The translations under genes and the position numbers were made by a program. A DNA stretch of 64,000 bases from Candidatus Woesebacteria bacterium (GTDB lineage Bacteria; Patescibacteriota; Microgenomatia; UBA1400; UBA12028): positions 38,023 through 102,022 of the forward strand of contig JBDTWD010000003.1 in assembly GCA_040006915.1 (NCBI GenBank). The letters run 5' to 3'. The notes beneath the pieces are model-generated. The model was given only the letters and a program-made list of their open reading frames with translations, did no database searches and was not told where the DNA came from. The stretch's first letter is position 1. Each line of letters begins with the position of its first letter. Positions 9,717-61,116 of the stretch are shown here, in pieces.

Positions 9717-9717
9717 A

Positions 9718-12756: not shown

Positions 12757-12825
12757 ATGGAAACTCCTACTATATTTATATATACGTACTCAAGATCCTT
12801 ACCGTACCAAAGTAAAAGGGACGCG

Positions 12826-13758: not shown

Positions 13759-14327
13759 ATGTTTTTTGTCTCCTCTATCATCTGATCTATTTTCCCGGAT
13801 TCTAAAAGTGTTTGAATCAATGGTAATAATCTGACCGCATTGGGTGGCATTAAGATCGAGCCGTTTTCTACGCTGGTGATCAAATCAACAATATCAAAGA
13901 ATCTCACTTCTTGTGCTTCAACAGTATTGAATCCAGGAAAAGGCCCTTCGTGCAGACCATAGAACATTGCCCAAAACTCGGACTCATGCACTCCTGGTTG
14001 GAATATTTTCATCCAGTGGGTAAGAGGGACATTCACTCCTAATTCTTCACTGAGTTCACGAACCGCAGTTTTCTCATACGAATCGCCGCTGTTAACATGA
14101 CCTCCCACAGAAAATACCCAGTACCCAGGAAACATATCTTTTGTCATGCTCCGCTTTTGCATCAAAAGATGTTTTTTTTTGTTAAAGATATAGACACCGG
14201 CAGCACGATGAATGAGTTTGGGATCGCTATGTACTTGTTTGCGAGTGGCTGTTCCAAGGACTTCGTCCTCCTCGTTCACAACATCATAGACTTCTTCCTG
14301 ATTATCAGTGGTATTGGGATTGTACAT
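13755..14327 (-). CDS. NUDIX hydrolase
   Basis: Nudix box GGHVNSGDSYEKTAVRELSEELGV. Confidence 0.75.
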   Translation of the reverse strand: MYNPNTTDNQEEVYDVVNEEDEVLGTATRKQVHSDPKLIHRAAGVYIFNKKKHLLMQKRSMTKDMFPGYWVFSVGGHVNSGDSYEKTAVRELSEELGVNVPLTHWMKIFQPGVHESEFWAMFYGLHEGPFPGFNTVEAQEVRFFDIVDLITSVENGSILMPPNAVRLLPLIQTLLESGKIDQMIEETKNI

Positions 14328-14334
14328 ACGACAA

Positions 14335-14673
14335 TTATGCCGCCATTACTTTAGTGATCATTTCACGATATTTCTCTTCTCCACCAAATCCAATTTGACG
14401 ATCTGCTTCGACCATTTCACCTTTCTCATTTTTCTTGAAAGCAACCACAGTCGGAATACTCATAATTCCATAGTTACCGGCAATGTTTGTGGCATCCGTA
14501 TCAACTTTAACGATTTTCACCTTCCCAGCAAATTCGTCTGACAATTTATCGATAATTGGAGCAGCCATCTTGCATGGTCCACACCATTCGGCGTAGAAGT
14601 CCACAATCACTGGAGTCTCTGATTTTAAAACCTGATCTGTAAATTGATCATCGGTTAAGTGTGCTGCTGCCAT
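14335..14673 (-). CDS. trxA: thioredoxin
   Basis: WCGPCK active site, 112 aa. Confidence 0.9.
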   Translation of the reverse strand: MAAAHLTDDQFTDQVLKSETPVIVDFYAEWCGPCKMAAPIIDKLSDEFAGKVKIVKVDTDATNIAGNYGIMSIPTVVAFKKNEKGEMVEADRQIGFGGEEKYREMITKVMAA

Positions 14674-29073: not shown

Positions 29074-30471
29074 TTGTCATCCTCTACCTCTTACAGTAGA
29101 CTCAACCTATTATCAGTAATCATAAAATGTATGCCGGAAAAATCATCAGAAAACAACGGGGGGAAATCCTCGAAAAATTCAAATCTTTTTTCAAGATTCA
29201 TTAGCAACTTCAGAAGAGAAACTGAGGACAACATAGATATTGATGATGACCTCTCTCCTATTCCGGAAACCTCTCGTACTCCAATTTCTATAGCAGATGT
29301 TTTAGAAAAAATATCTGTACATATGGATGAGATAGCAAACACATCAGAGACGCCAACTCGTAATGTGCTGATGTACGTCGTGATTGATTTAGATACAGCT
29401 GATATTGTTGACATACAGTGGAAAAGGTCACATGCTCCTTCAAATAAGTTCGTTCCACTCCCGCTTTTTTTGAAACTAAAAGATGGAAAGCCACAACGAC
29501 TTTTTGCTTCTGATGATATTGAGGCCTATTATCAGCAAAATGAGAGACAGAGTGTTAATTTAGAAAGTGCTACAGATTCTCTGATGCTCACAGTGAATAA
29601 AGAACTAGGCGGCGCAGAAAACTATGAGCCTTTGAGTCATAGAGATCTCGTCAAAGAAATTCACGATCACGTCAAAAAACTGGAAAAGAAAGATCGAGCT
29701 CTTCCCCTGCATGTGAGAATGCGACCAGATACTGGAGAAATTACCCAACTTATATGGAAAAATGAGACCAACACTTTTGACTCAGAAGGTATCTTTATTT
29801 CTTTGCAGATTGAGCTGCGATCCTCCCGAGTCTATGCAGTTACTCTTTCGGGAGAACAAGACCCCTTACTTTTGAACAATCAAGATTTATTAAAGAGCCT
29901 TTCGATCAAGCTGCAACGAATTACCACGGATTTAAGTAGTCCAGATCTTCTTTTTGAGAACAGGTCACCTGCTCCGTTACGCCACATCGACGCTAGGGGA
30001 AATAACCCATATGAAGAAGCTTTTGAAGCGGATCTCAAGGCAGCTTTCAAGGAAGCTGTCCAGAAAAAAAGAATAACTGCAGAAGTAATGCGTATTGTTC
30101 CTAAAGAATCAAAAGGAAACGAACCCTTGACCGATGAAGAAACCATCGAAGCGACATACGCTCTTATACAAGGCAATACAGTCCCCTCGTTTAAAAAAGG
30201 AATTTCCTCGTTTTATTTTATCTGGTCAGTGGATCCAGAGAATGGTCGAATAGTGGCTGTGGATTATCAAAGCGGGAGTGCAAGCTCTGATACTATTCCT
30301 ATCCAGATAAAGTGCCTTATGGACGTGGATGTATTCAGAAAACCTGCATTTAAAGTTCAAGTTTTTCAAATTGAGAATACTTCAAATGCAGAACGATTAG
30401 AACCTCGAGCACTTGTGGAATTCAGGAAACATTTTGAAGATATAAATGGGATTGCACGATCATCGTTCTAG
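29074..30471 (+). CDS. hypothetical protein (465 aa, acidic, no TM, no recognisable domain)
   Basis: Long clean ORF with no motif I can assign. The N-terminus may start at a later Met. Confidence 0.5.
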   Translation: MSSSTSYSRLNLLSVIIKCMPEKSSENNGGKSSKNSNLFSRFISNFRRETEDNIDIDDDLSPIPETSRTPISIADVLEKISVHMDEIANTSETPTRNVLMYVVIDLDTADIVDIQWKRSHAPSNKFVPLPLFLKLKDGKPQRLFASDDIEAYYQQNERQSVNLESATDSLMLTVNKELGGAENYEPLSHRDLVKEIHDHVKKLEKKDRALPLHVRMRPDTGEITQLIWKNETNTFDSEGIFISLQIELRSSRVYAVTLSGEQDPLLLNNQDLLKSLSIKLQRITTDLSSPDLLFENRSPAPLRHIDARGNNPYEEAFEADLKAAFKEAVQKKRITAEVMRIVPKESKGNEPLTDEETIEATYALIQGNTVPSFKKGISSFYFIWSVDPENGRIVAVDYQSGSASSDTIPIQIKCLMDVDVFRKPAFKVQVFQIENTSNAERLEPRALVEFRKHFEDINGIARSSF

Positions 30472-32263: not shown

Positions 32264-32545
32264 CTATGGTAGTTTCACCGTATCGACAAACAAGGTTGTT
32301 CCACTGAATTGACCGGTAACCGTCACATTTTTTCCCACATAGTCATCGAGTTTTACCGTGTAGGAATCTAAATCTCTGGTGACACTACCTGGACTTGCGA
32401 TATAGAATTTCCCTGCGGTTTTAGCGATGGTTCCAGAAACCGTGGTAGTCACCGCTGCCTGGCTGGTCGGCGTCGGTGCTACTGGCTGTTTGCTACAGCC
32501 CACACACAGGCCTGCAATTAAACAGAATAGGAATAGTTTTTTCAT
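32264..32545 (-). CDS. small lipoprotein, hypothetical
   Basis: Lipobox LCVGCS after signal peptide. Consistent with lgt in the window. Confidence 0.45.
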   Translation of the reverse strand: MKKLFLFCLIAGLCVGCSKQPVAPTPTSQAAVTTTVSGTIAKTAGKFYIASPGSVTRDLDSYTVKLDDYVGKNVTVTGQFSGTTLFVDTVKLP

Positions 32546-34203
32546 AGTTGTACCTCCTCTTGTGGTCCAATAACTTCTTCACTGCGAGCCAGTTTGTTTC
32601 TCCAATCTTTCACTCTCCCTTGAATTGAAACCAAAATCGAAAGCTGTTCAACGGAGAACATTGCACACAAGAAAGTATAGACGATTGCTCCTGCCAGCGC
32701 TGCAGCTCCAGTCAGCGCAAATAATCCTAAAACTCGAGTTGTATCAAATACCAGTTGATCGAGGAGTTTCATGACCACGTATAGCGTACCTCCCATCAAA
32801 ATTGCAGAAAGAGCCAGTTTCCCTTGTGGGATAAAGAACTCTTTCCAATAGAAGGTTCGTAACCGATGAAAAAGCGTCACCAGTAACAGTAATACTTCAG
32901 TAAAAGCTGCAATCGTAAATCCAAGTGGAATCGCATGAACTCCCCATCCCAAAACTGCAGTCCCAAGCCACATGACAAAAATATTTATTCCCATGGCGAC
33001 AAGCGCAATAAAGAAAGGAACCTTGGTTTCTTTGAGTGCATAAAATGCTCGTAAAAGAACATGGATCATTGCTACCGCTCCGACTGCAATCGCATAAATC
33101 GCAACCAACTGACCAAGCAATACTGTATCTGTCCAAGGAAACTCTTTGGCGCCATATGCAAGTCGAACAATGGGAATACGTAAAACCAGTAAAAGGGCTC
33201 CGGCAGGATACATGAAAAATGCGATTTGATGTAAGGTTTTAATTAGAAGTTTCACAAAACCAACGATGTCGTGATCTTTGGCTTCGGAAGAGAGAAAAGG
33301 TAAAGCGGCTTGAGCAATTGAAACACCAAAAAAGCGAATCGGAGCTGCGATCAAACTTTGGGCAAAAGTCACGCTGGTAAGCAGTGTGCTTCCAAGTGAA
33401 GTTGCGATATACACCCCCACAAAATCTTCTACCGCATTGGTGGTTTGCGTTGCTCCTCTTGGGAGCATGAGTTTAAATACTTCACGGACGTTACTGTTCT
33501 GAAAATTCCAGCGCAAACGGAATACAAACCCGTACCGAATGGCGAGTGGCAACTGGATAGCGAAATGAACTACAGCTCCGAGGAGTACGCCAATCGTCGG
33601 TCCATAAATTCCCACGATAGGAGAGAAGATCAAGGTGCCGACGATAATTCCCAGGTTGTACAGGATTGGAGAAAGTGCGGGTAAGAGAAAACTTCTATTC
33701 GATTGTAAAATCCCTGACAAAAAATTACTCAGGAGGAAGAAAAACTGGGCTCCCAACATTACCCGCATCAGTTGAGCAGCCAACATCACTTGCTCCACAC
33801 TAAATTCTTTTCCGGTAAAGCTGCGAATTAACGGGACGGCAAATATCCCAGCTATAGTCGCAACAATGATGTAGGCAATTCCTAAAATGGTCATCAAGGT
33901 TTGAACAAATTGATGTTTCTCTTCATCTTGATGCAGAAGACGACTGTAGACAGGGATAAAGGTTGCAGATAAGACGCCTACAACCAGTAATTGAAACAAA
34001 AAGTCAGGAATCCGAAACGCAGCAAAGAATGCGTCCAGTAATGGACGACTTTCTCCGACAAAAACCGAGACCAACAAGCGTTTATAGAGTATCCCCAAAA
34101 CCGCCGAGCACACCGAGAGTGAGCCAATCAACGTCGCTGCCGATAGAATAGAGGTCTGCTCTGAAAACAGAAATGACGCGCTTTTTTTAAGGAGAGAAAC
34201 CAT
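32542..34203 (-). CDS. murJ: lipid II flippase MurJ. Likely start MVSLLKK at 34203; the track ORF extends to 34272.
   Basis: ~14 TM. N-terminal ...SRPLLDAFFAAFRIPDF...SATFIPVYS matches the MurJ/MviN conserved region. Confidence 0.85.
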   Translation of the reverse strand: MVSLLKKSASFLFSEQTSILSAATLIGSLSVCSAVLGILYKRLLVSVFVGESRPLLDAFFAAFRIPDFLFQLLVVGVLSATFIPVYSRLLHQDEEKHQFVQTLMTILGIAYIIVATIAGIFAVPLIRSFTGKEFSVEQVMLAAQLMRVMLGAQFFFLLSNFLSGILQSNRSFLLPALSPILYNLGIIVGTLIFSPIVGIYGPTIGVLLGAVVHFAIQLPLAIRYGFVFRLRWNFQNSNVREVFKLMLPRGATQTTNAVEDFVGVYIATSLGSTLLTSVTFAQSLIAAPIRFFGVSIAQAALPFLSSEAKDHDIVGFVKLLIKTLHQIAFFMYPAGALLLVLRIPIVRLAYGAKEFPWTDTVLLGQLVAIYAIAVGAVAMIHVLLRAFYALKETKVPFFIALVAMGINIFVMWLGTAVLGWGVHAIPLGFTIAAFTEVLLLLVTLFHRLRTFYWKEFFIPQGKLALSAILMGGTLYVVMKLLDQLVFDTTRVLGLFALTGAAALAGAIVYTFLCAMFSVEQLSILVSIQGRVKDWRNKLARSEEVIGPQEEVQL

Positions 34204-34342
34204 GATCAGTATAGGATACTCAATAAACTCCAAATACCAAATACCAAATTTAAAGAGCCTTCTCCTCCTCAAGTGCTTTCCAAAACTCAGGGGGAATGCT
34301 ATACTACTTGTTCAGTAAAACCTAGAAATACACGAAATCCGT

Positions 34343-34579
34343 ATGCCTATCACCAAATCAGCACTCAAAGCTTTACGTCAAGACCGTCGTCGCGCAGAGA
34401 CGAACAGACCTATTCGCTCTCGAGTAAAGACTACTTTAGATGAATTAAAAACTGCTCAGTCACAAACTGCTCTTTCCAGTGCTTTTTCTGCTATTGATCG
34501 AGCTTTAAAAAAGAATCTGATTCATCGAAATAAGGCTGCTCGTCTCAAGAGCAAGGCCTCTAAACTGATCTCAAAGTAA
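34343..34579 (+). CDS. rpsT: 30S ribosomal protein S20
   Basis: MPITKSALKALRQDRRRAETNRP... Confidence 0.9.
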   Translation: MPITKSALKALRQDRRRAETNRPIRSRVKTTLDELKTAQSQTALSSAFSAIDRALKKNLIHRNKAARLKSKASKLISK

Positions 34580-34582
34580 GTT

Positions 34583-34612
34583 CCTCACTTGTGCCAGTGC
34601 CCCTTTTTTTGC
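34583..34612 (+). terminator. possible weak intrinsic terminator after rpsT
   Basis: Short hairpin (CACT-TGTGCC-AGTG) followed by CCCC + a 7-T run. The stem is only 4 bp. Confidence 0.3.
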
Positions 34613-35260
34613 TACGCTGTTACCATGGCGTACAAACCGCAAACTCTTGTTATTCCAAAAATTAACCTTATTCCCCGGGATCCGTTCTATGAAACGACGA
34701 TTGGGAAGATTATGGTCTGGGCGATCCAAGTGGGTCGATACATCATCATTTTTACCGAAATTATTGTTATCATGAGCTTTGCTTCCCGCTTTAAGCTCGA
34801 TCGCGATCTGACAGATCTTACGGCCAAAGTCACACAGAAAAAAGCGATTGTCGAGTCATTTGGTGATATTGAAGCTCGTACTCGTACCATCCAAGATAAA
34901 ATTGCGACAACTCAAAAACTCCTTGCCGACGGAACAGCTATGTTTTATCTGGACAAAGTCACAGCCAGAATCCCGTCTGGAATCGAATTAACTCAACTTA
35001 CTCTTGATCCTGGTACCCTTACTTTTTCAGGAAAAGCTGTAAATTCGAACGTTCTGGCTGCCATGATCGTGGCGTTGCAGCAAGAGCCAGCCTTCACCAG
35101 TGTCTCTGTCGACAAGATCTCTTCAGGACAAGCAAATGATCCAAACGTTTCATTCGCAATTAAACTCACTATTCCACAGAAAGCAGTGGAAGCGAAAGTT
35201 GAAGATGGCAGTACACCAACAACTCCGCCCACATCACCTGATACACCAGTAACACCATAG
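34589..35260 (+). CDS. pilN: type IV pilus assembly protein PilN
   Basis: N-terminal INLIPRD (the PilM-binding INLLP motif), single TM, coiled-coil plus ferredoxin-like periplasmic domain, Pro/Thr C-terminal tail. Confidence 0.7.
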   Translation: MCQCPFFCYAVTMAYKPQTLVIPKINLIPRDPFYETTIGKIMVWAIQVGRYIIIFTEIIVIMSFASRFKLDRDLTDLTAKVTQKKAIVESFGDIEARTRTIQDKIATTQKLLADGTAMFYLDKVTARIPSGIELTQLTLDPGTLTFSGKAVNSNVLAAMIVALQQEPAFTSVSVDKISSGQANDPNVSFAIKLTIPQKAVEAKVEDGSTPTTPPTSPDTPVTP

Positions 35261-35264
35261 ATCT

Positions 35265-35924
35265 ATGCCAATCCAAAGACCATCACTACAACGAACTATT
35301 ATCCAGATGGATTTAAACCGCTTTTATGACAAGCCAGTCACCCGAGTATCTGTGGCATTAGTGCTTTCTCTACTCGCTATTGCTTTTTTCGCACTGGCTG
35401 CGATACGCCCGACTCTACAAACTATGGCAGAGTTATTAAAAGAAATTGATCAGAAAAAAACCTTAGATGAGAAATTGACGCAAAAAATTACGGCACTTAC
35501 TAGTGCTCAACGTCAACTCTCAGAAAAGGAAGCACTATTCCCTGTACTCTCGATCGCAATCCCCTCTAATCCAAACTTTGCTCAGCTCATGACAGTGATC
35601 GAAAAATTAGCAACGGAACGCCAAGTTGAATTTTCTTCGGCACAAATCCAAAAAGTTCCGCTTGAAGGCAAACCACCAAGCGCAACGGCAAAGTATCAAC
35701 TAGTTAGTTATCCTATGACACTTGCCTTCTCGGGATCATATGAGAATTTGATTCTACTCATGCGTGATCTTCAGTCCATTAAACGAATCATTGCAATTGA
35801 TCGATTTGATATTTCTCCTGCGGTACAAAGTGCCCCTACGGAGTTAACCCTTACCCTCGCAATTCGCGCATTCTCGTTTAATCAATTACAAGGAGCTGCT
35901 CCGGCACCGGTGCCTGTTCCGTAA
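35265..35924 (+). CDS. pilO: type IV pilus assembly protein PilO-like
   Basis: Single TM, coiled-coil (KKTLDEKLTQKITALTSAQRQLSEKE), periplasmic domain, Ala/Pro C-terminus, immediately after pilN. Confidence 0.6.
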   Translation: MPIQRPSLQRTIIQMDLNRFYDKPVTRVSVALVLSLLAIAFFALAAIRPTLQTMAELLKEIDQKKTLDEKLTQKITALTSAQRQLSEKEALFPVLSIAIPSNPNFAQLMTVIEKLATERQVEFSSAQIQKVPLEGKPPSATAKYQLVSYPMTLAFSGSYENLILLMRDLQSIKRIIAIDRFDISPAVQSAPTELTLTLAIRAFSFNQLQGAAPAPVPVP

Positions 35925-35931
35925 AATCAGT

Positions 35932-36318
35932 ATGAAAAAAAGATTAACATTTAAACAACTCCTCTTTGAACAACAGATACTGGGAATTTTGCTCTTTTCT
36001 GTATTAGTTGTGTTTTTGTGGGTAGTATCGACTATTTATTTTTCCTACACCAAATCTACACTTACCAGTGAAGATGAAACGGTTGTTATCCCTCTGAGTC
36101 CTATTATTGATGATCGCCCACTACAAGTTTTAAGTAGCCGACGCTGGTGGAGTGACAGTGATCTACAAAGCTTTGCAGTCAGTGTCGTGATACGTGACAG
36201 TAACGGAAAAACGACGACTTCTCAAACCCAAACAGGAGCAGCTTCACCATCTGCTACCCTTGCGCCCACTCCTGTCCCCACACCACTTCCAGCCTCTGGT
36301 TCTGCCCAAACGCAGTAA
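35932..36318 (+). CDS. membrane-anchored protein with Thr/Pro-rich C-terminus (PilP-position, hypothetical)
   Basis: N-terminal TM, small domain, PT-rich tail. 8-nt gap after pilO. Confidence 0.4.
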   Translation: MKKRLTFKQLLFEQQILGILLFSVLVVFLWVVSTIYFSYTKSTLTSEDETVVIPLSPIIDDRPLQVLSSRRWWSDSDLQSFAVSVVIRDSNGKTTTSQTQTGAASPSATLAPTPVPTPLPASGSAQTQ

Positions 36319-36365
36319 GTGTATGGTACTTGTAGTGCAATTAGTGAGCATGATAGCGTAGTACT

Positions 36366-37682
36366 ATGGCCCAATCGTTTCTTTCGACCAAAAGAATTCC
36401 CACCATTGTTGGTATTGTGATTTTGAGTGCTGGCTTGATCGGAGGAATCTTCTTAGCTAACTCTGTTACTACGGGCTTTCTTCCGAGAGCTTCCCCCGAG
36501 TCAACTCCAAAGAACTTAAAAATCACCAATGTCACCGATACCAGTTTTACTGTTTCTTGGGTAACCGATAGCAAGACAACCGGCTACGTAAAGTATGGCC
36601 CCAGCAGTAGTTCAATTAGCAGTGTTACTACTGATGATCGAGATCAAATTGGTGGTAGTGTTGGCCAATTTAAAACACATCATGTTACCCTTCGGGGATT
36701 AACTGCATCCACAACCTATTTCTATAAAATCGGTACTGGTACCAGCGAACTATACGACGATAGTGGCAAACCTTATCAAACAAAAACCACCGTTCCAATC
36801 ACCTCACCTGCAAAAACCTTGTACGGAGAAGTTCTTTCCAGTGATACAACCGGAGCCACTGGCGCCTTAATTTATATTAGTGGAGATTCAATTGCCCCAC
36901 TCTCTACCATTACGCAAAGTGGTGGAAGTTTTGCCTTATCACTAGCGATCGCCCGAGCGAAAGACGGTGTTAGCAGTGCCACTTTTACGGATGACACCAA
37001 GATTTCATTGCTCGTCATTAGTCCGATAGATGATACGACTAGTGTAATCGATGCAACGATTTCTCAAGGTCAGCCCTTCCCTGATATTGTATTAGGTAAG
37101 AATCAAAATCTCACAAGTCCCACACAAACACCCCAACCAGAAGCAGAAAATACTTCCGCTCCAACGCAAAGCAAGTTTACCAGTCAATTACTCTCAGCTC
37201 CGGTCGAGATTCCCGCGTCAGTCAGTGCCAACTTTCTTTCAATAAGTGCACCAACTGATCAATTTGTTTCAACTGTTGCTCGTCCAGTCTTAAGTGGTAC
37301 AGCTTCAAAAAGCGCAACCGTTTCGTTAGCTCTTAAAGGACCATCTACGTTAACAACGAGCACGAAAGCGACTGCAACGGGTGCATGGACATACACACCA
37401 GTAACGAGCTTGAAAAATGGCGCCTATACTCTTACAGCTAGTACCACAATCAGTGGAAAGAAAGAAACACAAAACGTTTCTTTCTCCATTTTGGTCCCCA
37501 CGCCTACGCCCAAAACCAGCACTGCTTCTGCAGTTTTAGGACTGCCATCCACTGAATCAGCAGATTTGGTATCCGGATCCACTGAAATCACCATTTCTTT
37601 TGCTCTCGCTGGTTTGTTATTTATCGGTTCTGGAGCTTTTTTCGCCACAATTCAGTCAAGTGATCACAAAAAAAGAAAATAG
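36366..37682 (+). CDS. surface protein with fibronectin type III-like domain, Ser/Thr-rich regions and C-terminal TM + basic tail
   Basis: NLKITNVTDTSFTVSWVTDS...YVKYG...TTYFYKIG is an FN3/PAP-N-like motif pattern. C-terminal ...TEITISFALAGLLFIGSGAFFATIQSSDHKKRK. Confidence 0.55.
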   Translation: MAQSFLSTKRIPTIVGIVILSAGLIGGIFLANSVTTGFLPRASPESTPKNLKITNVTDTSFTVSWVTDSKTTGYVKYGPSSSSISSVTTDDRDQIGGSVGQFKTHHVTLRGLTASTTYFYKIGTGTSELYDDSGKPYQTKTTVPITSPAKTLYGEVLSSDTTGATGALIYISGDSIAPLSTITQSGGSFALSLAIARAKDGVSSATFTDDTKISLLVISPIDDTTSVIDATISQGQPFPDIVLGKNQNLTSPTQTPQPEAENTSAPTQSKFTSQLLSAPVEIPASVSANFLSISAPTDQFVSTVARPVLSGTASKSATVSLALKGPSTLTTSTKATATGAWTYTPVTSLKNGAYTLTASTTISGKKETQNVSFSILVPTPTPKTSTASAVLGLPSTESADLVSGSTEITISFALAGLLFIGSGAFFATIQSSDHKKRK

Positions 37683-37727
37683 CATCTTGAGATTAGTTGA
37701 AAAGTTAGTTACTGTAGATATTGCATC

Positions 37728-39923
37728 ATGTCAGACGATCAAAAAACACCACCACCATCGCCACTCTCATCCACACAAGGAACTGCAAATTTGGATGATG
37801 TGCTGTCATCGTTGGAAAAACAGTTACCACAAGATTCAGCTACACCAGCGCCTGTTGACCCAGTCTCACCACCTAGTCCAACCCCACCTGTTACCCCTCC
37901 CGAGCCAATGCCTCCACTTACACCTGTAGAAGAAAAACCTGTTGAGCCAGTACCTCCGGTAATTCCACCTGCTCCAGAGCCAATGGCTTCAGCAGCCTCT
38001 ACCCCGACTCCACCGCCAGTTCCAACTTCTTCATCATTTGGTATTGAAGAAAACCACATTGAACCAGTAGCCACACCGGTTCCGGTAGCTACTCCTGAAC
38101 AAAGTCCCGTACTAACTGAAACGCTCAGAGAGCACCCTATGGTTGCGACGCAAACAACAACGACAACTGCTCCTCCTCCAAGAAAAAAAGGATTATTTGG
38201 AATTGATCCTAAGCTTATTGTGGGTGCTGCCGTTGTTTTCATTTTGGCAATTGGATCTGTTGCTGCATATTTGACAATTGGAGCACCAGCAGGTTCTTTG
38301 GATACGAGAAATCAAGCTTCCGGATGTAGTATTGTCTACAATCAAAACACTTTTACACTTACAAATTGTGTGGGATCTGGAACTATCACAAGGTTTAATG
38401 GACCGTCATGTCCAACAACACAGAATAAAGTAAGTGAGGTTCCTGCAACCGATGGTACTATTTCGCCTCAGCCGCCAGCAGGTCAATGTCAACAGGTCGA
38501 TCATAATTTTGGCGGAAATGGACCAGACGGGCTTCCAATTGGGGCTGGTGGAGTCTGTTCCTGTAATAGCGCTCCTTCCCCTACTCCTCAACCACGTGCT
38601 TGTGGTGAAGCATGTACCACAACAGCAAACTGCCGTAACCCAAGTACTGGAGGCTTTCCAGTTGAATGTCGCAACGGCAAATGTCAACTTCCCTTGACTG
38701 GTCCATACGCTTGTCCGGAAGGACAGTCTTCAGGTTCAATTTGTACCTGTGCAGCCAAAGTTCAATGTGGACAGCAATGTGGCCCTGCAGCTGGAGGGAA
38801 GTTGTGTAACCCTGGCAGTGTCTGCGGATTCTTGACTCCTTCAAACGCGTGCAAAGTGAACGGCGTTGATCAAAGTACAAAACAATACTGTATCCCTGTC
38901 AATCCAAATGGTGGATATAGCTCCAAGCGCTGTGACACCACTCCGGCAATCAACTATATTGCTGCTGACTCTTTGGTAAAACCAGACGGAACACAAACAA
39001 ACTTAACCGCTGCGGATGCAGTAGTTGCATGTACCCCAGTCTGTGGAGATAAGATTGTAGCTGGAAATGAAGAGTGTGATGCTGGAAGTGAAAATGGAAA
39101 GCCAGGATCAACTTGTGATGCAACGTGCAAAATGCGCAACGTCTGTGGCGACACTTGCTCTGCCGCTAGTGAATGCAATAAGCATTACGTTACCTTGCGA
39201 TGTAGTGTAGGCGCAACTGGAACAACCGAACGATACTGTGGATTAGATGCAATCGTTGAAAACGGAGTCACCATTGAAGAGAATAGTACCCGCTTCATCA
39301 AACCAGGAATGTGGAGAATCTCAAGTACTGCAGCTTTGAGTGGTGGATCTGAAATATACGACCACGAACAAGGTGCCACAATCTCCTTCTGGACCTCAGC
39401 AACAAATGTAACTCTCGTCTATACCAAAGCTTCAAATCGTGGAACCTTTAATATCCTTGTCGACGGAAAGCAGCAATCGGCAACTATCAATCAAAATGGG
39501 ACAACCACACAATACAAGCAAAATGCACTTATTACGGTTCGAGATGCCAGTATTCCTGAATATGTCTGCACCTCAAATACTTGCCGCCTGTCAACCAGCC
39601 CTGAGAGTCCGACCTGTGATGGGAATATTCCTTCTCCATCACCAACTCCATCGGCTCCACCACTCGCCTGTCTCCGTATTTCCTCTGATAATCCAACTCC
39701 AGTATTGGGAAGCCAAGTGCGATTCACTTGTGGCCTCGTCACTGGTGTTGATCGCTATGAATTCCGCTACAAGATGACATTCAATGGAGTTGATGGAGCT
39801 GGTGGAACACTCGCTGCAACTAATAATTTGTCTGCTCCTCTTACTGTTGATCAACCTGGAGATTATAAAGCACAGTGTCGGCCATGTGTTGGTCAGGCAT
39901 GTGCACCTTGGCAGAATTGGTAA
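37728..39923 (+). CDS. large bitopic Cys-rich protein: Pro-rich N-terminal ~165 aa, one TM, ~540-aa Cys-rich ectodomain including a myxo-type CGD..EECD repeat
   Basis: PPPSP/PVTPPEPMPPLTP N-terminus. TM LIVGAAVVFILAIGSVAAYLTIG. More than 50 Cys. CGDKIVAGNEECDAGSENG matches the myxococcal cysteine-rich repeat pattern. ACGEACTTTANC...C resembles the 8-Cys module. Confidence 0.55.
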   Translation: MSDDQKTPPPSPLSSTQGTANLDDVLSSLEKQLPQDSATPAPVDPVSPPSPTPPVTPPEPMPPLTPVEEKPVEPVPPVIPPAPEPMASAASTPTPPPVPTSSSFGIEENHIEPVATPVPVATPEQSPVLTETLREHPMVATQTTTTTAPPPRKKGLFGIDPKLIVGAAVVFILAIGSVAAYLTIGAPAGSLDTRNQASGCSIVYNQNTFTLTNCVGSGTITRFNGPSCPTTQNKVSEVPATDGTISPQPPAGQCQQVDHNFGGNGPDGLPIGAGGVCSCNSAPSPTPQPRACGEACTTTANCRNPSTGGFPVECRNGKCQLPLTGPYACPEGQSSGSICTCAAKVQCGQQCGPAAGGKLCNPGSVCGFLTPSNACKVNGVDQSTKQYCIPVNPNGGYSSKRCDTTPAINYIAADSLVKPDGTQTNLTAADAVVACTPVCGDKIVAGNEECDAGSENGKPGSTCDATCKMRNVCGDTCSAASECNKHYVTLRCSVGATGTTERYCGLDAIVENGVTIEENSTRFIKPGMWRISSTAALSGGSEIYDHEQGATISFWTSATNVTLVYTKASNRGTFNILVDGKQQSATINQNGTTTQYKQNALITVRDASIPEYVCTSNTCRLSTSPESPTCDGNIPSPSPTPSAPPLACLRISSDNPTPVLGSQVRFTCGLVTGVDRYEFRYKMTFNGVDGAGGTLAATNNLSAPLTVDQPGDYKAQCRPCVGQACAPWQNW

Positions 39924-39925
39924 CT

Positions 39926-40735
39926 ATGAAAAATCGAAAGTCTATCATCGCTGGTTTCATACTTTTTGTCCTAGTAGTGGCTGCTATTGGAGTGGTGATT
40001 ATCACTCGCCGAACTTCAGGAACACAATCTGTTGCTCCAACAGCTCCACAATCACAGCCAGCAGCAACATCTTGTACCCTTTCCTTTACGGTCGAAGGGA
40101 CACCTGGCCCTTCTGAAAGTCCAACCCCAACCCCTTCTGCATCACCGACAGCAAGCCCAAGTCCAACTCCAACCGCTACTCCTGTTGCTCAATGTAACAG
40201 TACTTGTGCGTCCGATAGTGACTGTCCTGCATCTATGACTTGTTCTAGTGGAACGTGTCGTAATCCAGCGTGTACAGACTCAGACAGCTGTGTATGTGCG
40301 ACTGCAACACCTGCTCCTACACCAACACCGACCCCAGGACCATCGTGTAACAGTGAATGCACCACCAATGATCAATGTCCGTCAAACTTAATCTGTGCTT
40401 CAGGTCGCTGCAGAATGCCAGGCTGCACTGCTCTGGATAGCTGTACTTGTGGACCAACCTGTAACTCAACCTGTACAACCAACTCTGACTGTCCAAGTGA
40501 TCTGATCTGTGCCTCGAATCAATGTCGCCGACCTGGATGTACAGCTCTGGATACGTGTTCATGTGGTACACCTGGACCAACAGCTACCCCTACAACTCCA
40601 CCAGTTGTGGTCCAAAGCACGCCTGTACCACAGGAAGTCCTTCCAGTCGCAGGTTCTTCCCTCCCAACAGCAGGGTTAGTAGGAACTGGGATCATCACTA
40701 TCATCATCGGAATCCTAGGGCTACTAGCACTCTAA
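39926..40735 (+). CDS. Cys-rich repeat surface protein with C-terminal LPTAG + TM sorting signal (start MKNRKS at 39926, 2 nt after the upstream gene)
   Basis: N-terminal TM/signal, PT-rich linker, three tandem 8-Cys modules, ...EVLPVAGSSLPTAG-LVGTGIITIIIGILGLLAL. Confidence 0.6.
   Translation: MKNRKSIIAGFILFVLVVAAIGVVIITRRTSGTQSVAPTAPQSQPAATSCTLSFTVEGTPGPSESPTPTPSASPTASPSPTPTATPVAQCNSTCASDSDCPASMTCSSGTCRNPACTDSDSCVCATATPAPTPTPTPGPSCNSECTTNDQCPSNLICASGRCRMPGCTALDSCTCGPTCNSTCTTNSDCPSDLICASNQCRRPGCTALDTCSCGTPGPTATPTTPPVVVQSTPVPQEVLPVAGSSLPTAGLVGTGIITIIIGILGLLAL
40193..40564 (+). repeat. three tandem copies of a ~35-aa 8-Cys module (CNSxCxxxxDCPSxLICASxxCRxPxCTALDSCxCG) encoded in-frame
   Basis: R1 AQCNSTCASDSDCPASMTCSSGTCRNPACTDSDSCVC. 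R2 PSCNSECTTNDQCPSNLICASGRCRMPGCTALDSCTCG. R3 PTCNSTCTTNSDCPSDLICASNQCRRPGCTALDTCSCG. Confidence 0.7.
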
Positions 40736-41115: not shown

Positions 41116-41189
41116 GGGCGTGTGGCGCAATCGGTTAGCGCAGGAAGCTTATACCTTCAAGGTTCCTGGTTCGAGTCCAGGCACGCCCA
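41116..41189 (+). tRNA. tRNA, anticodon loop CUUAUAC -> anticodon UAU (Ile, AUA-reading) by hand folding
   Basis: Acceptor GGGCGTG/CACGCCC, D-arm GCGC-AATCGGTTA-GCGC, anticodon arm GGAAG-CTTATAC-CTTCA (27-43 mismatch), variable AGGTT, T-arm CCTGG-TTCGAGT-CCAGG, discriminator A. CCA not encoded. Confidence 0.75.
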
Positions 41190-41395
41190 CAATCGTTGAA
41201 TAGGTTCATAAATTATGTGTGCTATGCCAGTTCTATCGAATGCGTGATACCATTTATGTAGTAGAAAAATGCATATATATGATTTCTTCTGTTCTCTGCC
41301 TACTTCTCATCAAACTTTAAGGCTTTTATGATATATATGTCTCGCGGTGATTCGACGTATAAACTGGGTGTACAATACACAAGTGAAAAGCAAAT

Positions 41396-41644
41396 ATGAT
41401 AAATATAAAGTTCGGCTCCAATAAAGAATCCAAATCATTCGTACTAAGCCTCTTCGACAAGACCATTGATAATGAAGGATATATCATTGAACAAAAATCA
41501 AAGAAGAGAGTGCTTAGTGCTGACGGACAGGAGATTACCCTCGAAGAATTTGGCGTGATTAAAAACGGTTCTGAAATCTTTGCAAAAGATGATATCGCCG
41601 CACTTGTTCGCTTTTACGAAAGGTACCTTAGCGATGCTAAGTAG
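41396..41644 (+). CDS. hypothetical protein (82 aa)
   Basis: ORF downstream of the tRNA, no motif. Confidence 0.35.
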   Translation: MINIKFGSNKESKSFVLSLFDKTIDNEGYIIEQKSKKRVLSADGQEITLEEFGVIKNGSEIFAKDDIAALVRFYERYLSDAK

Positions 41645-41653
41645 GTCTACTTT

Positions 41654-42466
41654 ATGTTGGATCTACTCCCTGGCTTAAAGACTATAATTGAGAAAGTTGG
41701 ACTGTCTGATTCGCTCAACCTCTTCTCCAACAACACGCAGAAAAACAACATCCTTAACGTAAATATAAACATCCAACCTGGAACTGATCCAAAAGCGCTC
41801 GCAGAAGTCGCTGTGGAGATGAAGAAACTCATACGAGGCAGTGAAGATGGTTTTTTGGGTGTAACGGACAAATCAGAAACAACGCTAGAGTTGATTGATG
41901 GATATGAAAAGAGTGATGTGGATGTGGAGCAAAGGAAGTTCGTGATGAGCTGTATTCCACAAAGAGATCGATCACTTTGGATGTCTGCACTAATACTTCG
42001 GAGACAATTCAAACTCATGGGCAATAAAGAAGAAGTTTGGCGAATTAAGGGGGATATGTCCAGATCGAGTTCTAGAGGGAAAAATATTGCCAATCTCTGT
42101 ACTGCAGGCTACTTGGAATCACATATAATTCCGCTGTATGAACACGTGGTTAATGAAAAACATGACGAGCAACAATTCATTGATATTTACTCAATGATCG
42201 TATCGGACTTCCCTTTTGCTGTTTTTGTGTCTCAGCTTCGATCAGATACGGAAATAAATGCAGAGATCGTTGAAAAAATCGAGACAGTTGGACAGTACGG
42301 ATGGAAGATGGTCAAGGTTCACGGGATCGGAGAGGAAAATGTAAAAAAAATTCAACGTGTAGTGCTGCAAGTACAAGATGAGAAAAAAGCTGAAATAATC
42401 AGCACTGATGTAGATTCCCACCGATCAGGCGGACAAATAATCGCTGTTACTTTCAATCTTAAATAG
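41654..42466 (+). CDS. hypothetical protein (270 aa)
   Basis: Clean ORF. Weak resemblance of C-terminal VKVHGIGEENVKKIQRVV to an Smr-type HGxG motif only. Confidence 0.45.
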   Translation: MLDLLPGLKTIIEKVGLSDSLNLFSNNTQKNNILNVNINIQPGTDPKALAEVAVEMKKLIRGSEDGFLGVTDKSETTLELIDGYEKSDVDVEQRKFVMSCIPQRDRSLWMSALILRRQFKLMGNKEEVWRIKGDMSRSSSRGKNIANLCTAGYLESHIIPLYEHVVNEKHDEQQFIDIYSMIVSDFPFAVFVSQLRSDTEINAEIVEKIETVGQYGWKMVKVHGIGEENVKKIQRVVLQVQDEKKAEIISTDVDSHRSGGQIIAVTFNLK

Positions 42467-43829: not shown

Positions 43830-46163
43830 TTAAAGCTTCGCTCGAACGGCTGTTTCTTGTTCCACAATATCTCGTGGACGACCGTATTTAATCCTTGAGA
43901 GCTCACGAATGAGTTCAGCGCGTTTGGGATCCATCAGTTTCTTCTCCCCTTCAATATCGCGCGTTAAGTCCATGCTAAATGGAGGAACAGGCTCGTTGTT
44001 CACAATGGTTTTGATGTAGACGTGATATTTTTCAATATTGGTTAAATCTGTTTCAGAAAATGTTGGCGCAAATTCATGTTGCAGAAAATTTGCATCCGGA
44101 ACACCAACACGGAAAGTTACCATCGAGCCAACGTTGCCAAAGACCGCGTTCTTTACGTCTTCTTCGATCTGAGCCACAAACTGGTTGGCAACAATCAAAT
44201 TTAGTCGGTACTTACGAGCTTCAGAAAGAATGGTAGCGAAATCTTCAGTTGCATAGTTTTGGAACTCATCGACGTAGAGATAGAAATCTCGACGCTGCTC
44301 CATCGGCATATCTTGACGACTCATGGCAGCCGTTAAAATCTTTGGCACCAAAATCAAACCTAAGAACTTGGCATCCTCTTCTCCCAATTTTCCTTTGGAT
44401 AAATTGACCAAGAGAATCTTTCCTTCATCCATAACCTGGCGGAAATTAAAAGCGCTTTGACTTTGGCCAATAATGTTTCGCATTACCTTATTGGTAATGA
44501 ATTTGCCAAATTTCGAAACGATGTAGTCTAGAACTTCAGACTTATGGAAATCACTCGTCTGGGCAATCTGGTCCGTCCAGTAGCGACGCACAACCGGATC
44601 TTTCACTTTCGGAAGCAGTTCCTGCACATACTTTTGATCAGTCAAACAGCGCACGAGTTCAATAAAAGTAGCCCCTGGTTCAGCCATAATAGTTAACATG
44701 GCGTTACGAATGGCATGCTCAAATCGTGGACCGATGATACCGGTTTTGTGTGGATCGTAGAGCTTGTACATTAACGCGATAATTGATCCCACCACAAAAT
44801 GCATCTGTTCTTCGGTCTGCGCTTCCATAATATTTAAACCCATCGGTCGTTCAGTATCAGATGGATTAAAGTAAATAACTTCTTCAGCTCGTTCTGGAGG
44901 GATAAGCTGCATGATATCTTCGACCAACTCTCCATGTGGATCCAAAACTGCCATCCCTTTTCCAGCTCTGATATCCTGCAAAATCATATCTTTTAAGAAT
45001 TCTGATTTTCCGGTACCAGTCTTTCCGACAATATACATGTGACGTTGACGATCTTTTTCCTCAATAAAGATCTCTTTCTTTGTCCCTCGATAATTACTTG
45101 AACCTAAGCGCATTCCAGAAGTTGCGATACTGGCCGGAGCCGGAGCCGACTTAGCTTTAAGCCAATTAATGTGGTGGGTTTCAACCGTTTTATTAGGGAA
45201 ATGCAGAATTGTAGACATCTCTTCAGAATTTAAAACAAATGCCCCGCGATCAAATAACGGCATGTAGCGATAAATGAAATCGACCATGAATAATTGCTTG
45301 AACAAAATTCTCGATCGCTTAAAGCTATTCGTTGGACTACTAAACTGAGCAAAAGCACCAAGAATGTTAGTTAAGTGAGAATTAGCCCTCCTGGCATCAA
45401 TTGATGAGACCACAACACGCAGAGCTACTTTAAATCCTGGTTTGGAAGCTTTGGTCTCAATGGCATCCAGTTTTTTAGGGTCATGATTATAGGAAGCTTT
45501 TTGTGGATCAGATTCTTTTTTCTTCGTATCGGCAACATACTTGCTTCCAGCTCGCTGCCATCCGGGACCAGCGGGCTCTAACACAAATTGCACAATTGCC
45601 CCCTCACCTTCATCCATTTTCGAAAGCGCTGAACTTAAGAGTGATAGTCCATCAGTGGGAAGATCTTTATATACTTTAATTGGTAGATACGTTTGACTGG
45701 CTAGAGTCAAAGCTGCAAACGCAACTTTGCCACCTTCTGAGAAAATATTGTATTCTTCCGCCTCTTCAATCTCTGCAGATGGATAGGCTCCATAAATTTG
45801 TTTTTCAATCAAATCAGTTAACTCCGCTGGAACCGTAACGTAAAAGGCAATGCTTTCGTGTAACGCCACAATTTCAAACGTAAAGTGATCTTCAGGTTTA
45901 AGAATTGATCCCACTCCTTCATTTTTTAAACTGTATAAACCGGCAAACATCTGTTCAGCTGCATCAATTTTTATTTCGTTCTCTTTAGGTAACAATACTT
46001 TGAGAACCTTAAAGCCAAGTGAGTATTTTTCTCTCCCACGGAATCGAAACCATTGGACAACCATATAGACGAGCCCTGCTCCGAAGATCAACGGGATCGC
46101 AAACAAGGCCAGGCTTGTGAGAATTTGGGTAACGACAATTGCAATATCAGTGGTTGGATCCAT
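43830..46163 (-). CDS. VirD4/TraG/TraD-family type IV coupling protein-like membrane ATPase
   Basis: Two N-terminal TM helices, Walker A YIVGKTGTGKSEF, Walker B FYLYVDEFQNY, C-terminal ...SEARKYRLNLIVANQFVAQIEE (TraG-D_C-like). Confidence 0.65.
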   Translation of the reverse strand: MDPTTDIAIVVTQILTSLALFAIPLIFGAGLVYMVVQWFRFRGREKYSLGFKVLKVLLPKENEIKIDAAEQMFAGLYSLKNEGVGSILKPEDHFTFEIVALHESIAFYVTVPAELTDLIEKQIYGAYPSAEIEEAEEYNIFSEGGKVAFAALTLASQTYLPIKVYKDLPTDGLSLLSSALSKMDEGEGAIVQFVLEPAGPGWQRAGSKYVADTKKKESDPQKASYNHDPKKLDAIETKASKPGFKVALRVVVSSIDARRANSHLTNILGAFAQFSSPTNSFKRSRILFKQLFMVDFIYRYMPLFDRGAFVLNSEEMSTILHFPNKTVETHHINWLKAKSAPAPASIATSGMRLGSSNYRGTKKEIFIEEKDRQRHMYIVGKTGTGKSEFLKDMILQDIRAGKGMAVLDPHGELVEDIMQLIPPERAEEVIYFNPSDTERPMGLNIMEAQTEEQMHFVVGSIIALMYKLYDPHKTGIIGPRFEHAIRNAMLTIMAEPGATFIELVRCLTDQKYVQELLPKVKDPVVRRYWTDQIAQTSDFHKSEVLDYIVSKFGKFITNKVMRNIIGQSQSAFNFRQVMDEGKILLVNLSKGKLGEEDAKFLGLILVPKILTAAMSRQDMPMEQRRDFYLYVDEFQNYATEDFATILSEARKYRLNLIVANQFVAQIEEDVKNAVFGNVGSMVTFRVGVPDANFLQHEFAPTFSETDLTNIEKYHVYIKTIVNNEPVPPFSMDLTRDIEGEKKLMDPKRAELIRELSRIKYGRPRDIVEQETAVRAKL

Positions 46164-46644
46164 ATGTTACTTCTGAACCTAATTTTTTTACCAGGCGCTG
46201 ACACCACTGTGCTAACCACCTGACACTCTCGTTAACGTTTGTATGTAGTCCTTGTTTATACTCAACTTCCCCTAGAGGAAGAACAAAAACGGGCTGAGCA
46301 CTATAATGATTGGTTGCCGATTGAGCCGTCTTGTCTGCAACCACAATTTCTGGTGGTTTTTCTCCACTATTATCTCGATTCACTTTTTCCATCCAGCTGG
46401 AAACTTCAGGAGGTAATGGTTCTTTTTCAATTGCGTCGGTACCAACGACTTCAATAGTCGGGGTGGTTTCAGCCGAAATCGGACCTGCCTCTTTGGCTTT
46501 TCCACTCACTTGTGTATCAACCACAGGCTGGGCGCTACTCACTGCATTTACGACTGGTTGCACCATGGCTGGTGCCTGCATAACTGGCTGATCAGTTGGT
46601 GGAACTACTGGTGTTGGTACTTGAGGAATAGCATTCGAATCCAT
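46147..46644 (-). CDS. hypothetical Pro/Val/Gln-rich protein co-transcribed with the coupling-protein-like ATPase
   Basis: 165 aa, 17-nt overlap with the downstream ATPase gene. Confidence 0.45.
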   Translation of the reverse strand: MDSNAIPQVPTPVVPPTDQPVMQAPAMVQPVVNAVSSAQPVVDTQVSGKAKEAGPISAETTPTIEVVGTDAIEKEPLPPEVSSWMEKVNRDNSGEKPPEIVVADKTAQSATNHYSAQPVFVLPLGEVEYKQGLHTNVNESVRWLAQWCQRLVKKLGSEVTYGSNH

Positions 46645-60630: not shown

Positions 60631-61116
60631 CTATTCTAGAAACCCTTCCACAATCATATCTTCAGCAAGTTTCTGTGGGATTCCCCGGCTTTCTAGATAA
60701 AACAAATGTTCTTCAGGAATCCTTGAGATACTCGCAGCGTGAGAACATTTCACATCATCAGTCTTGATTTCGAGTTCGGGAATGGCTTCAGCTTTGGCCT
60801 TGTCAGACAGTAATAAAATTCGTTCCTCTAAAAATGACTGGGTGTCTCCACAGTCTTCCTCGATAATGATCCGACCAAAAAACCGAATATGGCTCTTGTC
60901 TTCTGCTACTCCCTTGAGTATCGTTTTGGCTCGCGTGTGAGGAGCTTTATGCACAATCGTTAAGTTAATGTTTATGTCATCATCATTTTTTCCGTGAAAC
61001 ATTCCTACGATTGATATTTCATCTCCAGGATTAAGAATTTCGACTCGATAGTCACCTGATTTGGTCAAGGTAATGTTTTTCATATTAGCCAACTGACCCT
61101 TCCATCTCATGATCAA
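60631..61116 (-). CDS. sufD: SufD-like protein, short form (161 aa, C-terminal SufBD domain only). TTG/alternative start likely.
   Basis: ...ILLLSDKAKAEAIPELEIKTDDVKCSHAASISRIPEEHLFYLESRGIP matches the SufB/SufD C-terminal signature (LEI..DDVKCSHGAT). Confidence 0.7.
   Translation of the reverse strand: MIMRWKGQLANMKNITLTKSGDYRVEILNPGDEISIVGMFHGKNDDDININLTIVHKAPHTRAKTILKGVAEDKSHIRFFGRIIIEEDCGDTQSFLEERILLLSDKAKAEAIPELEIKTDDVKCSHAASISRIPEEHLFYLESRGIPQKLAEDMIVEGFLE

Follow-up and report, generated by a model that had tools for sequence, protein, structure and literature searches.

A 64,000-nucleotide stretch from a Candidatus Woesebacteria bacterium (assembly GCA_040006915.1, contig JBDTWD010000003.1, positions 38,023 to 102,022 of the forward strand; hereafter, the window) carries a cluster of six genes, g1 to g6. 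In this cluster, a predicted pilN-pilO pair (g1 and g2) is followed by genes for a small bitopic protein (g3), a double-anchored surface protein (g4), and two cysteine-rich proteins (g5 and g6). The first four genes are deeply co-conserved across related loci. Our preferred reading, to which we give about even weight, is that the cluster represents a type IV pilus alignment module split from the main pilus locus, combined with new wall-tethering partners and with a variable adhesin cassette. The case draws on conserved genomic context and structure prediction.

A PilN-PilO gene pair and its conserved neighbours

The g1 product matched the Pfam family PilN (PF05137) with 42.9 bits (cut-off 22.8, E-value 5e-11), the match covering residues 121-194 of the scanned 223-residue open reading frame (ORF), which opens at a TTG codon. 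We place the start of the protein at the downstream ATG (position 34625), since a 100% identical NCBI protein (P0001, 211 residues) and the homologues begin there. A profile built from 24 g1 homologues found M. xanthus PilN (3jc8) as its best match in the PDB (2.2e-5). An earlier note on this DNA had pointed to an INLIP motif in g1, and this motif is indeed found close to the N-terminus, at residues 13-17. Across the family the corresponding N-terminal ‘kinllP’ aligns to RINLLP of M. xanthus PilN, with a Pro that is invariant among the 24 homologues; the motif takes the form [IV]N[LF][IL]P in the closer half of the PilN family and I-E-[FL]-[LI]-P in the distant half. A short cytoplasmic N-terminus is followed by the single hydrophobic segment of the protein (residues 31-58). 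This segment and the residues just past it form a block that is invariant in the subfamily, VGRY..FTE..V...F.SRFKLDRDLTDL, and we take the Glu that the block places inside the hydrophobic segment to lie in the membrane span. Judged by its sequence, this PilN subfamily is distinctive.

Similarly, g2, located directly 3′ of pilN, matched the Pfam family PilO (PF04350) with 46.9 bits (cut-off 22, E-value 4e-12) as well as T2SSM_b (4.4e-6), and a profile of 41 g2 homologues matched both M. xanthus PilO (1.1e-10) and P. aeruginosa PilO (2rjz, 1e-6). The g2 match to the GspM equivalog model NF040576 (36.3 bits) fell below its cut-off of 60. The protein is predicted to be bitopic, with one transmembrane segment at residues 29-47. 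A string of invariant or near-invariant residues lies just past the hydrophobic segment (A46, P49, T50, T53, M54, and L57; consensus AIRPTLxTMSxL). By family and profile matching, g1 and g2 are genuine members of the PilN and PilO families.

We surveyed the genomic context of these genes in 87 loci, comprising the window, 6 contexts retrieved by exact-protein look-up, and 80 loci found by scanning species-representative genomes, in which relatives were detected in 175 stretches. All ORFs of these loci were analysed with iterative hidden Markov models, and the 67 loci with at least 3.5 kb of downstream sequence were considered informative. Among these, g3 was found in all 67 and g4 in 63, and the order g1-g2-g3-g4 was nearly invariant, with median gaps of 1 nt between g1 and g2, −4 nt between g2 and g3, and 82 nt between g3 and g4. 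This order was maintained in a locus whose PilN shares 35% identity with that of the window (L005) and in another in which Pfam barely detects PilN or misses it (L088), and homologues of g4 still follow g3 down to about 30% identity. Conserved synteny had been proposed as a check on the original observation, and for g1 to g4 it was found across dozens of species-level genomes, a recurrence that points to more than chance. Based on record titles, the module occurs in Woesebacteria, Pacebacteria/Paceibacterota, Cerribacteria, and Microgenomates. Many of the records behind loci L007-L086 are titled ‘uncultured Pseudomonadales bacterium’ despite a Microgenomates-type gene order (LepA, murJ, pilN), and these titles look like placeholders or mislabels.

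The conserved context also extends upstream. A homologue of murJ precedes pilN in 81 of the 87 loci, on the same strand in 64-65 of them and with a median gap of 58 nt, and LepA is conserved upstream in 70 loci. The gene for ribosomal protein S20, rpsT, is adjacent to pilN on the plus strand in 14-15 loci, and elsewhere lies on the opposite strand, beyond murJ. In most Microgenomates, rpsT is on the minus strand and murJ on the plus strand directly upstream of pilN, and the murJ-rpsT pair (32542-34579) appears inverted in the clade of the window, with murJ on the minus strand and rpsT on the plus strand abutting pilN.

The third gene of the module encodes a membrane protein with one transmembrane segment and, as had been noticed from the sequence, a Pro/Thr-rich tail. 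The transmembrane helix includes an invariant Trp (W30), and is followed by a conserved ectodomain of ~45 residues (PLxPxI...EEL..FxIY) and by a tail that is disordered across the family and either Pro/Thr-rich or acidic. No Pfam, NCBIfam, or PDB match was identified for g3, including with a family profile searched against the PDB and a Pfam scan of 40 members. An exhaustive comparison with 1.84 billion representative proteins detected 138 relatives. These relatives are stand-alone proteins of 77-182 residues that match at the N-terminus; the sole exception, P0317 (441 residues), was spurious, and we rejected it as an unrelated repeat protein. As far as its sequence tells, g3 is a stand-alone orphan family. 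Known pilus components were considered for this protein and set aside: g3 lacks the G|F...E motif of a pilin or prepilin, and, when compared to PilP, has no Cys in its N-terminal region (hence no lipobox), no HR domain, and only ~45 ordered ectodomain residues.

For g4, the suggestion of a surface protein with FN3 domains was substantiated by matches to both FN3 and Big_13 domains in Pfam, with Pur_ac_phosph_N at 50.6 bits, fn3 at 29.9 bits, and Big_13 at 31.3 bits, all above cut-off. An AlphaFold2 model built from 46 sequences reached a mean per-residue confidence (pLDDT) of 83.5, and included three beta-sandwiches with pLDDT >90. The N-terminal half of the model consists of a transmembrane helix (residues 12-36), an FN3 domain (49-140), a second beta-sandwich (151-250), and a disordered linker, and is followed in the C-terminal half by an Ig-like Big_13 domain (290-375), a Pro/Thr linker, and a second transmembrane helix (406-437). 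Residues I11, P12, T13, G16, and G27 of the N-terminal helix are invariant or near-invariant, and the invariant residues P12, G16, and G27 set this helix apart from a generic signal peptide. We also considered g4 as a sortase-assembled pilin and did not retain this assignment: the conservation of the N-terminal helix resembles that of a membrane anchor, and pilin or E-box evidence was neither sought nor seen. A distant g4 homologue outside of any PilN/PilO context (P0165) was likewise set aside as an uninformative, separate member of the FN3 family.

Within the window, the six genes are consecutive and on the same strand, as originally described, and are separated by gaps of 4, 7, 47, 45, and 2 nt from g1 to g6 (Table 1). 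The downstream limit of this cluster is a transfer RNA gene, tRNA-Ile(TAT), just 3′ of g6. On the other side, the same strand carries rpsT, which ends 45 nt before the ATG of g1, suggesting that the transcription unit begins at rpsT; in the clade of the window, rpsT is probably its first gene. A promoter-like site upstream of rpsT represents a candidate operon promoter. A strong promoter or terminator behind pilO had been named as an observation that would speak against the original reading; consensus scans revealed neither in any intergenic gap, with site counts equal to the shuffled expectation. No structure beating shuffled sequences was identified by intergenic folding, for which the sole feature was a weak 4-bp stem followed by a T7 run in the rpsT-g1 interval. 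Together, the spacing and strand of g1 to g6 make for an operon-like arrangement. Transmembrane segments were detected in all six products, making all six membrane-anchored.

Table 1 Coordinates of the six-gene cluster and of its flanking features in the window.
Feature	Coordinates	Strand	Description
murJ (lipid II flippase)	32542..34272	-	homologues in related loci match Pfam MurJ
promoter-like site	34277..34305	+	TTTCCA-17-TATACT, extended TG, 9/12; consensus match only
rpsT (ribosomal protein S20)	34343..34579	+	homologues match Ribosomal_S20p
g1 (PilN)	34625..35260	+	211 aa; ATG start; ORF itself opens at TTG 34589
g2 (PilO)	35265..35924	+	219 aa
g3	35932..36318	+	128 aa; small orphan bitopic protein (predicted)
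g4	36366..37682	+	438 aa; double-anchored surface protein (predicted)
g5	37728..39923	+	731 aa; bitopic mosaic protein with cysteine-rich ectodomain
g6	39926..40735	+	269 aa; ATG 2 nt past g5 stop; ORF opens at GTG 39875
tRNA-Ile(TAT)	41116..41190	+	Rfam tRNA 65.7 bits and ARAGORN

The cysteine-rich cassette and C-terminal sorting-like signals

The last two genes of the cluster show a different pattern of conservation. Homologues of g5 and g6, recognized by the C-terminal domain of g5 (YEFRY...QCRPC) and the LPxxG tail of g6, were found in only about 13-14 of the 87 loci, the g5 domain itself being conserved in about 13. Some relatives carry duplicated g5-g6 pairs, up to an order of g5 g6 g5 g6 g5 in one locus (L076). 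Such a patchy, mosaic, and duplicated distribution is expected less of a fixed machine part than of a variable adhesin cassette located at the end of the operon, and g5 and g6 plausibly represent a clade-specific, rapidly changing, disulfide-rich surface cassette of adhesins.

The earlier note had described g5 as a Pro-rich, membrane-spanning, and Cys-rich protein of 731 residues, and all three attributes were recovered: the N-terminus is rich in Pro, the membrane is spanned once, and the protein includes 39 Cys residues. The N-terminal part includes a conserved cytoplasmic motif, a variable Pro-rich linker, and the transmembrane segment (residues 163-181), while the ectodomain is composed of a Cys-rich region, an inserted Cys/jelly-roll module (~435-640), and a C-terminal Ig-like domain (645-731). 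The AlphaFold2 model of g5 is of low confidence overall (mean pLDDT 60), with a C-terminal Ig-like domain at pLDDT 83-91. The cytoplasmic motif, MSDDxK..LSxPQGTANLDDVL[AS]SLEKQ, is kept by g5 orthologues at residues 1-35 (37728-37830), and a second, shorter motif, FGIEEKHIE, is encoded at 38037-38060. Both motifs are located within the hypervariable Pro-rich region, and the conservation of two motifs amid such hypervariability suggests a cytoplasmic binding partner.

Paralogues of g5 are also encoded outside of the cluster. One of these, P0185 (ABI758_02640), lies elsewhere on the same contig, outside of the window, and three secreted paralogues (P0184, P0187, and P0189) are found together on a single 834,710-bp Joint Genome Institute (JGI) contig. 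Residues ~290-630 of g5 are shared with secreted paralogues, and the insertion at ~435-640 is common to secreted paralogues only. The Cys-rich and jelly-roll region is a shuffled module, and its presence in several secreted paralogues per genome suggests a surface-protein repertoire in multiple copies.

The g6 product, a 25-Cys protein, displays the three 8-Cys repeats that had been read from its sequence, each with the pattern C-x3-C-x5-C-x5-C-x4-C-x4-C-x5-C-x-C, at residues 90-124, 141-175, and 179-213. These modules are preceded by an N-terminal transmembrane segment and Pro/Thr linkers, and followed by an LPVAG motif and a C-terminal transmembrane helix. When compared to Pfam, g6 yielded three matches to Dumpy_DPY (1.8e-9). 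A likely source of disulfides for both g5 and g6 is a DsbA/MdbA-like oxidoreductase that is anchored in the membrane and has a CPFC site, encoded elsewhere in the window (12007-12756), which can account for the folding of these 39-Cys and 25-Cys proteins. The oxidoreductase gene adjoins genes for a thioredoxin reductase, a NUDIX protein, and a thioredoxin on the minus strand (12007-14673).

Both g4 and g6 belong to families with C-termini reminiscent of sortase substrates. An LPTAG sequence had been singled out in g6, and a sorting-like signal is present in this protein, but the motif conserved in its relatives is LPVAG, which is located 8 residues before LPTAG. Across 14 loci, proteins of the g6 family carry (E)LPx[TAS]G ahead of a hydrophobic C-terminal helix. 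The C-terminus of the g4 family instead consists of [ILM]P[VKRT][SA]G-S-x-x-T-T with a helix and a tail of mixed charge behind it. The LPXTG_anchor model (TIGR01167) was weakly matched by eight of 46 g4 homologues, with a best E-value of only 0.041, and none of the known LPXTG families matched g4 or g6 above cut-off. Lipid II is a known sortase acceptor. Within the window itself, no sortase gene was observed; sortases have been reported as near-ubiquitous in Microgenomates (PMC6744442).

Function of the module and competing explanations

The earlier note stated that no pilM, pilus ATPase, or pilin gene is present in the operon, which proved correct and extends to the entire 64-kb window, as assessed by Pfam and motif scans. 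Regular expressions for the PilB/PilT Walker A motif and for prepilin leaders had zero matches in the window or in the 87 loci, and Pfam identified neither a PilC platform protein nor a prepilin peptidase among the larger ORFs of the window, leaving the locus without a complete pilus cluster. For pilM specifically, no pilM-type family was listed by Pfam in the seven loci for which neighbours were looked up, and no PilM-like family recurred when the neighbouring genes of the 87 loci were clustered. ORFs at 12.8-29 kb, whose size had led to a guess of pilB, pilT, pilC, or pilM, turned out to be housekeeping genes, with Pfam families including ligase, Fic, RecF, MFS, glycosyltransferases, Pth, Lgt, and Trx.

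Published gene arrangements provide context for this absence. PilB, PilT, PilC, PilM, PilN, and PilO co-localise in many genomes of the Candidate Phyla Radiation (CPR) (Méheust et al.), and pilMNO is found within both pilus loci of TM7x, together with pilB and pilC (PMC12206443). In the closed Microgenomates genome Ch65, a single pilus locus includes pilins, PilD, PilB, PilT, PilC, and PilM, with PilN and PilO unlisted (PMC7143001). A pilus locus with PilM and without PilN or PilO is the pattern that a split arrangement predicts.

Under our preferred reading, the PilN/PilO part of the Microgenomates pilus machine would have been separated from the main pilus locus (pilM, pilB, pilT, pilC, pilD, and pilins). 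The cytoplasmic INLIP motif of PilN would then capture a PilM encoded elsewhere, and PilN and PilO would pair via their transmembrane, coiled-coil, and ferredoxin-like parts, as in known systems. Two partners may complete the complex, with g3 joining PilN/PilO in the membrane, and g4 sitting beside them via its conserved N-terminal helix while its three beta-sandwich domains reach outward through the wall. In most members of the g4 family, a sortase would attach g4, via the LPxSG-type signal at its C-terminus, to either lipid II or peptidoglycan, so as to tether the machine to the wall of a cell lacking an outer membrane, secretin, or PilP. This linkage would provide the wall anchoring performed in diderms by PilP, PilQ, and peptidoglycan-binding proteins, and the fixing of g4 to lipid II or peptidoglycan would give functional sense to the association with murJ. 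Finally, the g5/g6 surface cassette, probably adhesins, would be co-transcribed with the module in this clade.

An envelope complex assembled with PilN and PilO had already been suggested for the downstream genes. The data support this suggestion for g3 and g4, given their presence in 67/67 and 63/67 informative loci, the tight spacing of g1 to g3, and the predicted membrane anchoring, while support is weaker for g5 and g6, which are mosaic, duplicated, and found in about 13-14 of 87 loci. A broader version of the same idea, which we offer tentatively and hold to be rather doubtful, is that PilN/PilO, g3, and g4 form a Microgenomates-wide membrane-to-wall complex, coupled to MurJ and with g4 fixed to peptidoglycan by sortase, on which surface cassettes dock. 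Such a complex could be a monoderm replacement for PilP, secretin, and peptidoglycan anchoring, or a pilus-independent machine, and the docked cassettes would be the Cys-rich g5/g6 pairs here and arrays of VirB2-like proteins in another clade.

Several observations weigh against a split pilus module with a wall tether. Neither the 64-kb window nor, in any of the 87 loci, the surrounding 10 kb contained a pilus gene, and the evidence is at the level of the locus, such that pilM and the other pilus genes of this organism are inferred. The sorting signals of the window itself are imperfect, with a degenerate DLVSG in g4 and no positively charged tail in g6. Structural comparisons with Foldseek against the PDB returned generic folds only, i.e., tandem FN3/Ig strings for g4 and FN3/Ig domains for g5, the latter from a low-confidence model. 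LepA and rpsT are unrelated housekeeping genes that are conserved as well, so synteny alone constitutes weak functional evidence. Lastly, in four loci of one clade (L004, L033, L039, and L070), tandem genes for 6-7 VirB2/TrbC-like two-helix proteins take the place of g4, a replacement which the tether model leaves unexplained.

Some of these same observations may be accommodated by an autonomous, murJ-linked envelope complex, in which the PilN/PilO-like pair and g3/g4 would organise the wall/membrane interface or sortase-dependent display independently of any pilus. The adjacency of murJ, observed in 81 of the 87 loci and for the most part with a shared strand and a gap of about 58 nt, is in line with such a complex, as are the consistent absence of nearby pilus genes in the 87 loci and the sortase-like signals of the g4 and g6 families. 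The unusual invariant juxtamembrane block SRFKLDRDLTDL of the PilN subfamily, along with the Glu in its hydrophobic segment, and the (near-)invariant AIRPTLxTMSxL of g2 also point in this direction. We nevertheless consider this explanation unlikely, since PilN retains a PilM-binding-type N-terminal motif, and since the linkage to murJ may be inherited gene order, given that LepA and rpsT are conserved neighbours too. In addition, the pilus locus of Ch65 lists PilM without PilN/PilO (PMC7143001), which implies a supply from elsewhere.

Two further explanations redraw the limits or the nature of the module. It is distinctly unlikely, in our view, that only g1 and g2, perhaps with g3, cooperate, with g4 to g6 representing unrelated surface proteins that are co-transcribed or merely adjacent in a compact CPR genome with a retained gene order: g4 follows g3 in 63 of 67 loci, down to about 30% identity, its N-terminal transmembrane helix includes invariant Pro and Gly residues (P12, G16, and G27), and the genes of the window show no terminator or promoter signal between them. 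This view does draw on the longer g3-g4 spacer (median 82 nt) compared to g1-g2 and g2-g3, the patchy, mosaic, and duplicated g5/g6, the generic, adhesin-like beta-sandwich folds of g4, and the swapping of g4 for other genes in one clade. Alternatively, the module could belong to another filament or secretion system, with g1 and g2 akin to GspL (C-terminal part) and GspM of a type II secretion system (T2SS), i.e., a T2SS-like system, a competence pseudopilus, or a VirB2-type conjugative pilus. The matches of g2 to T2SSM_b (4.4e-6) and to GspM (36 bits, below the cut-off of 60) would be compatible with this possibility, but PilO scores above the GspM models. Likewise, the 6-7 VirB2/TrbC-like genes found directly after g3 in four loci are confined to one clade, so that they probably reflect a single evolutionary event, and a TrwB/VirD4-like ATPase of 777 residues, encoded 3-7 kb downstream in the window and in six close relatives, lies on the other strand and shows linkage in no more than 7 of the 87 loci. 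We know of no type IV secretion system that uses PilN/PilO, and overall regard this last explanation as very improbable.

If the split pilus module were confirmed, annotation that seeks pilMNO inside pilus loci would miss part of the machine, and g3 and g4 would become concrete candidates for fixing a pilus machine in the wall of a cell without an outer membrane. The association with murJ and the sortase-type signals together yield a testable model of a wall tether built on lipid II, and the g5/g6 cassette marks a repertoire of disulfide-rich surface proteins that changes fast and may determine host specificity. A central role in the attachment of CPR/Patescibacteria to host cells, and in their feeding on these cells, is ascribed to type IV pili, and Microgenomates are one of the two largest CPR superphyla. 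To our knowledge, only the type IV pilus system of Saccharibacteria has been studied genetically.

Other features of the window and comparison with known systems

Downstream of g6, at 41396-42466 (plus strand), a 270-residue ORF without Pfam match adjoins an 82-residue ORF. The 270-residue ORF has no counterpart in any related locus, and may thus be a variable island between g6 and the TrwB/VirD4-like ATPase. This ATPase is a coupling-protein homologue (43830-46163, minus strand) with TrwB_AAD_bind, DUF87, and TraG-D_C domains, and its homologues also match DUF8128; its gene is accompanied by that of a Pro-rich protein of 165 residues without known family (46147-46644, minus strand). Both genes recur at 3-7 kb past the module in the window and in no more than six close relatives, and the ATPase was rejected as a part of the module based on its opposite strand and its restriction to these 7 loci. 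In the clade with VirB2/TrbC-like arrays (PF18895, T4SS_pilin; L004, 11753-14872), the array members share an unusual xLLAQ motif near the N-terminus and a GGD(K/P)KG loop, and the array is followed by a divergently oriented gene for a protein of about 1150-1350 residues.

Elsewhere in the window, the sufB gene (61085-63697, minus strand) encodes an 870-residue product with an intein (Hint_2, Intein_splicing, and a LAGLIDADG_3 homing-endonuclease). A cluster at 7697-11993 includes two ATP-grasp enzymes (ATPgrasp_ST/RimK-like), a MATCAP-like carboxypeptidase, and a 7TM_transglut membrane protein, and may represent a peptide-tailing or peptide-modification system. A 465-residue ORF at 29074-30471 (plus strand) has no Pfam match, and the 5′ end of a 16S ribosomal RNA gene (1-312, minus strand) is cut by the start of the window.

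We found no description of a pilN-pilO-g3-g4 module in the literature on CPR/Microgenomates pili and sortase, in which the murJ link was not searched for. The locus does not qualify as a canonical pilMNOP(Q) operon. With the PilM-PilN-PilO-PilP(-PilQ) systems of M. xanthus and P. aeruginosa it shares bitopic PilN and PilO homologues, an INLLP-type motif, tightly adjacent genes, and the presence after pilO of two further envelope genes, g3 and g4, in the positions of pilP and pilQ. In contrast to these systems, it lacks an upstream pilM, PilP, and a secretin, and is linked to murJ rather than to ATPases, platform, and pilins; its partners are instead an orphan protein of bitopic topology and a protein with three beta-sandwich domains and two transmembrane helices.

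Monoderm pilus loci, including those of Saccharibacteria TM7x, resemble the present case in having PilN and PilO with no outer membrane or secretin. Gram-positive type IV pilus loci typically carry pilM-pilN-pilO inside complete loci. Compared to TM7x (PMC12206443), pilN and pilO are here isolated from pilB and pilC in all 87 loci and accompanied by conserved extra partners. Similarities are also apparent with sortase-anchored Gram-positive LPXTG proteins, including an LPx(S/T/A)G motif followed by a helix in the g4 and g6 families and, for g4, a string of beta-sandwiches with Pro/Thr linkers; however, Ser or Ala replaces the canonical Thr, and g4 retains a conserved N-terminal transmembrane helix. 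The GspL-GspM-GspC proteins of the T2SS likewise are bitopic proteins that connect an ATPase or actin-like partner in the cytoplasm with a part spanning the envelope, but the GspM score remains below cut-off here, and the locus has no GspL cytoplasmic domain, GspC, secretin, or pseudopilins. Finally, along with the sortase-anchored Ig/FN3 proteins of Gram-positive bacteria, the nearest analogy is the pilMNOWQ operon of Thermus thermophilus, in which a gene for a lineage-specific membrane protein, pilW, directly follows pilO, and the envelope-spanning part of the machine depends on its product. A sequence relation of g3 or g4 to PilW was neither tested nor seen. Although Thermus keeps pilM and pilQ in the operon, this arrangement provides a precedent for clade-specific genes placed after pilO.

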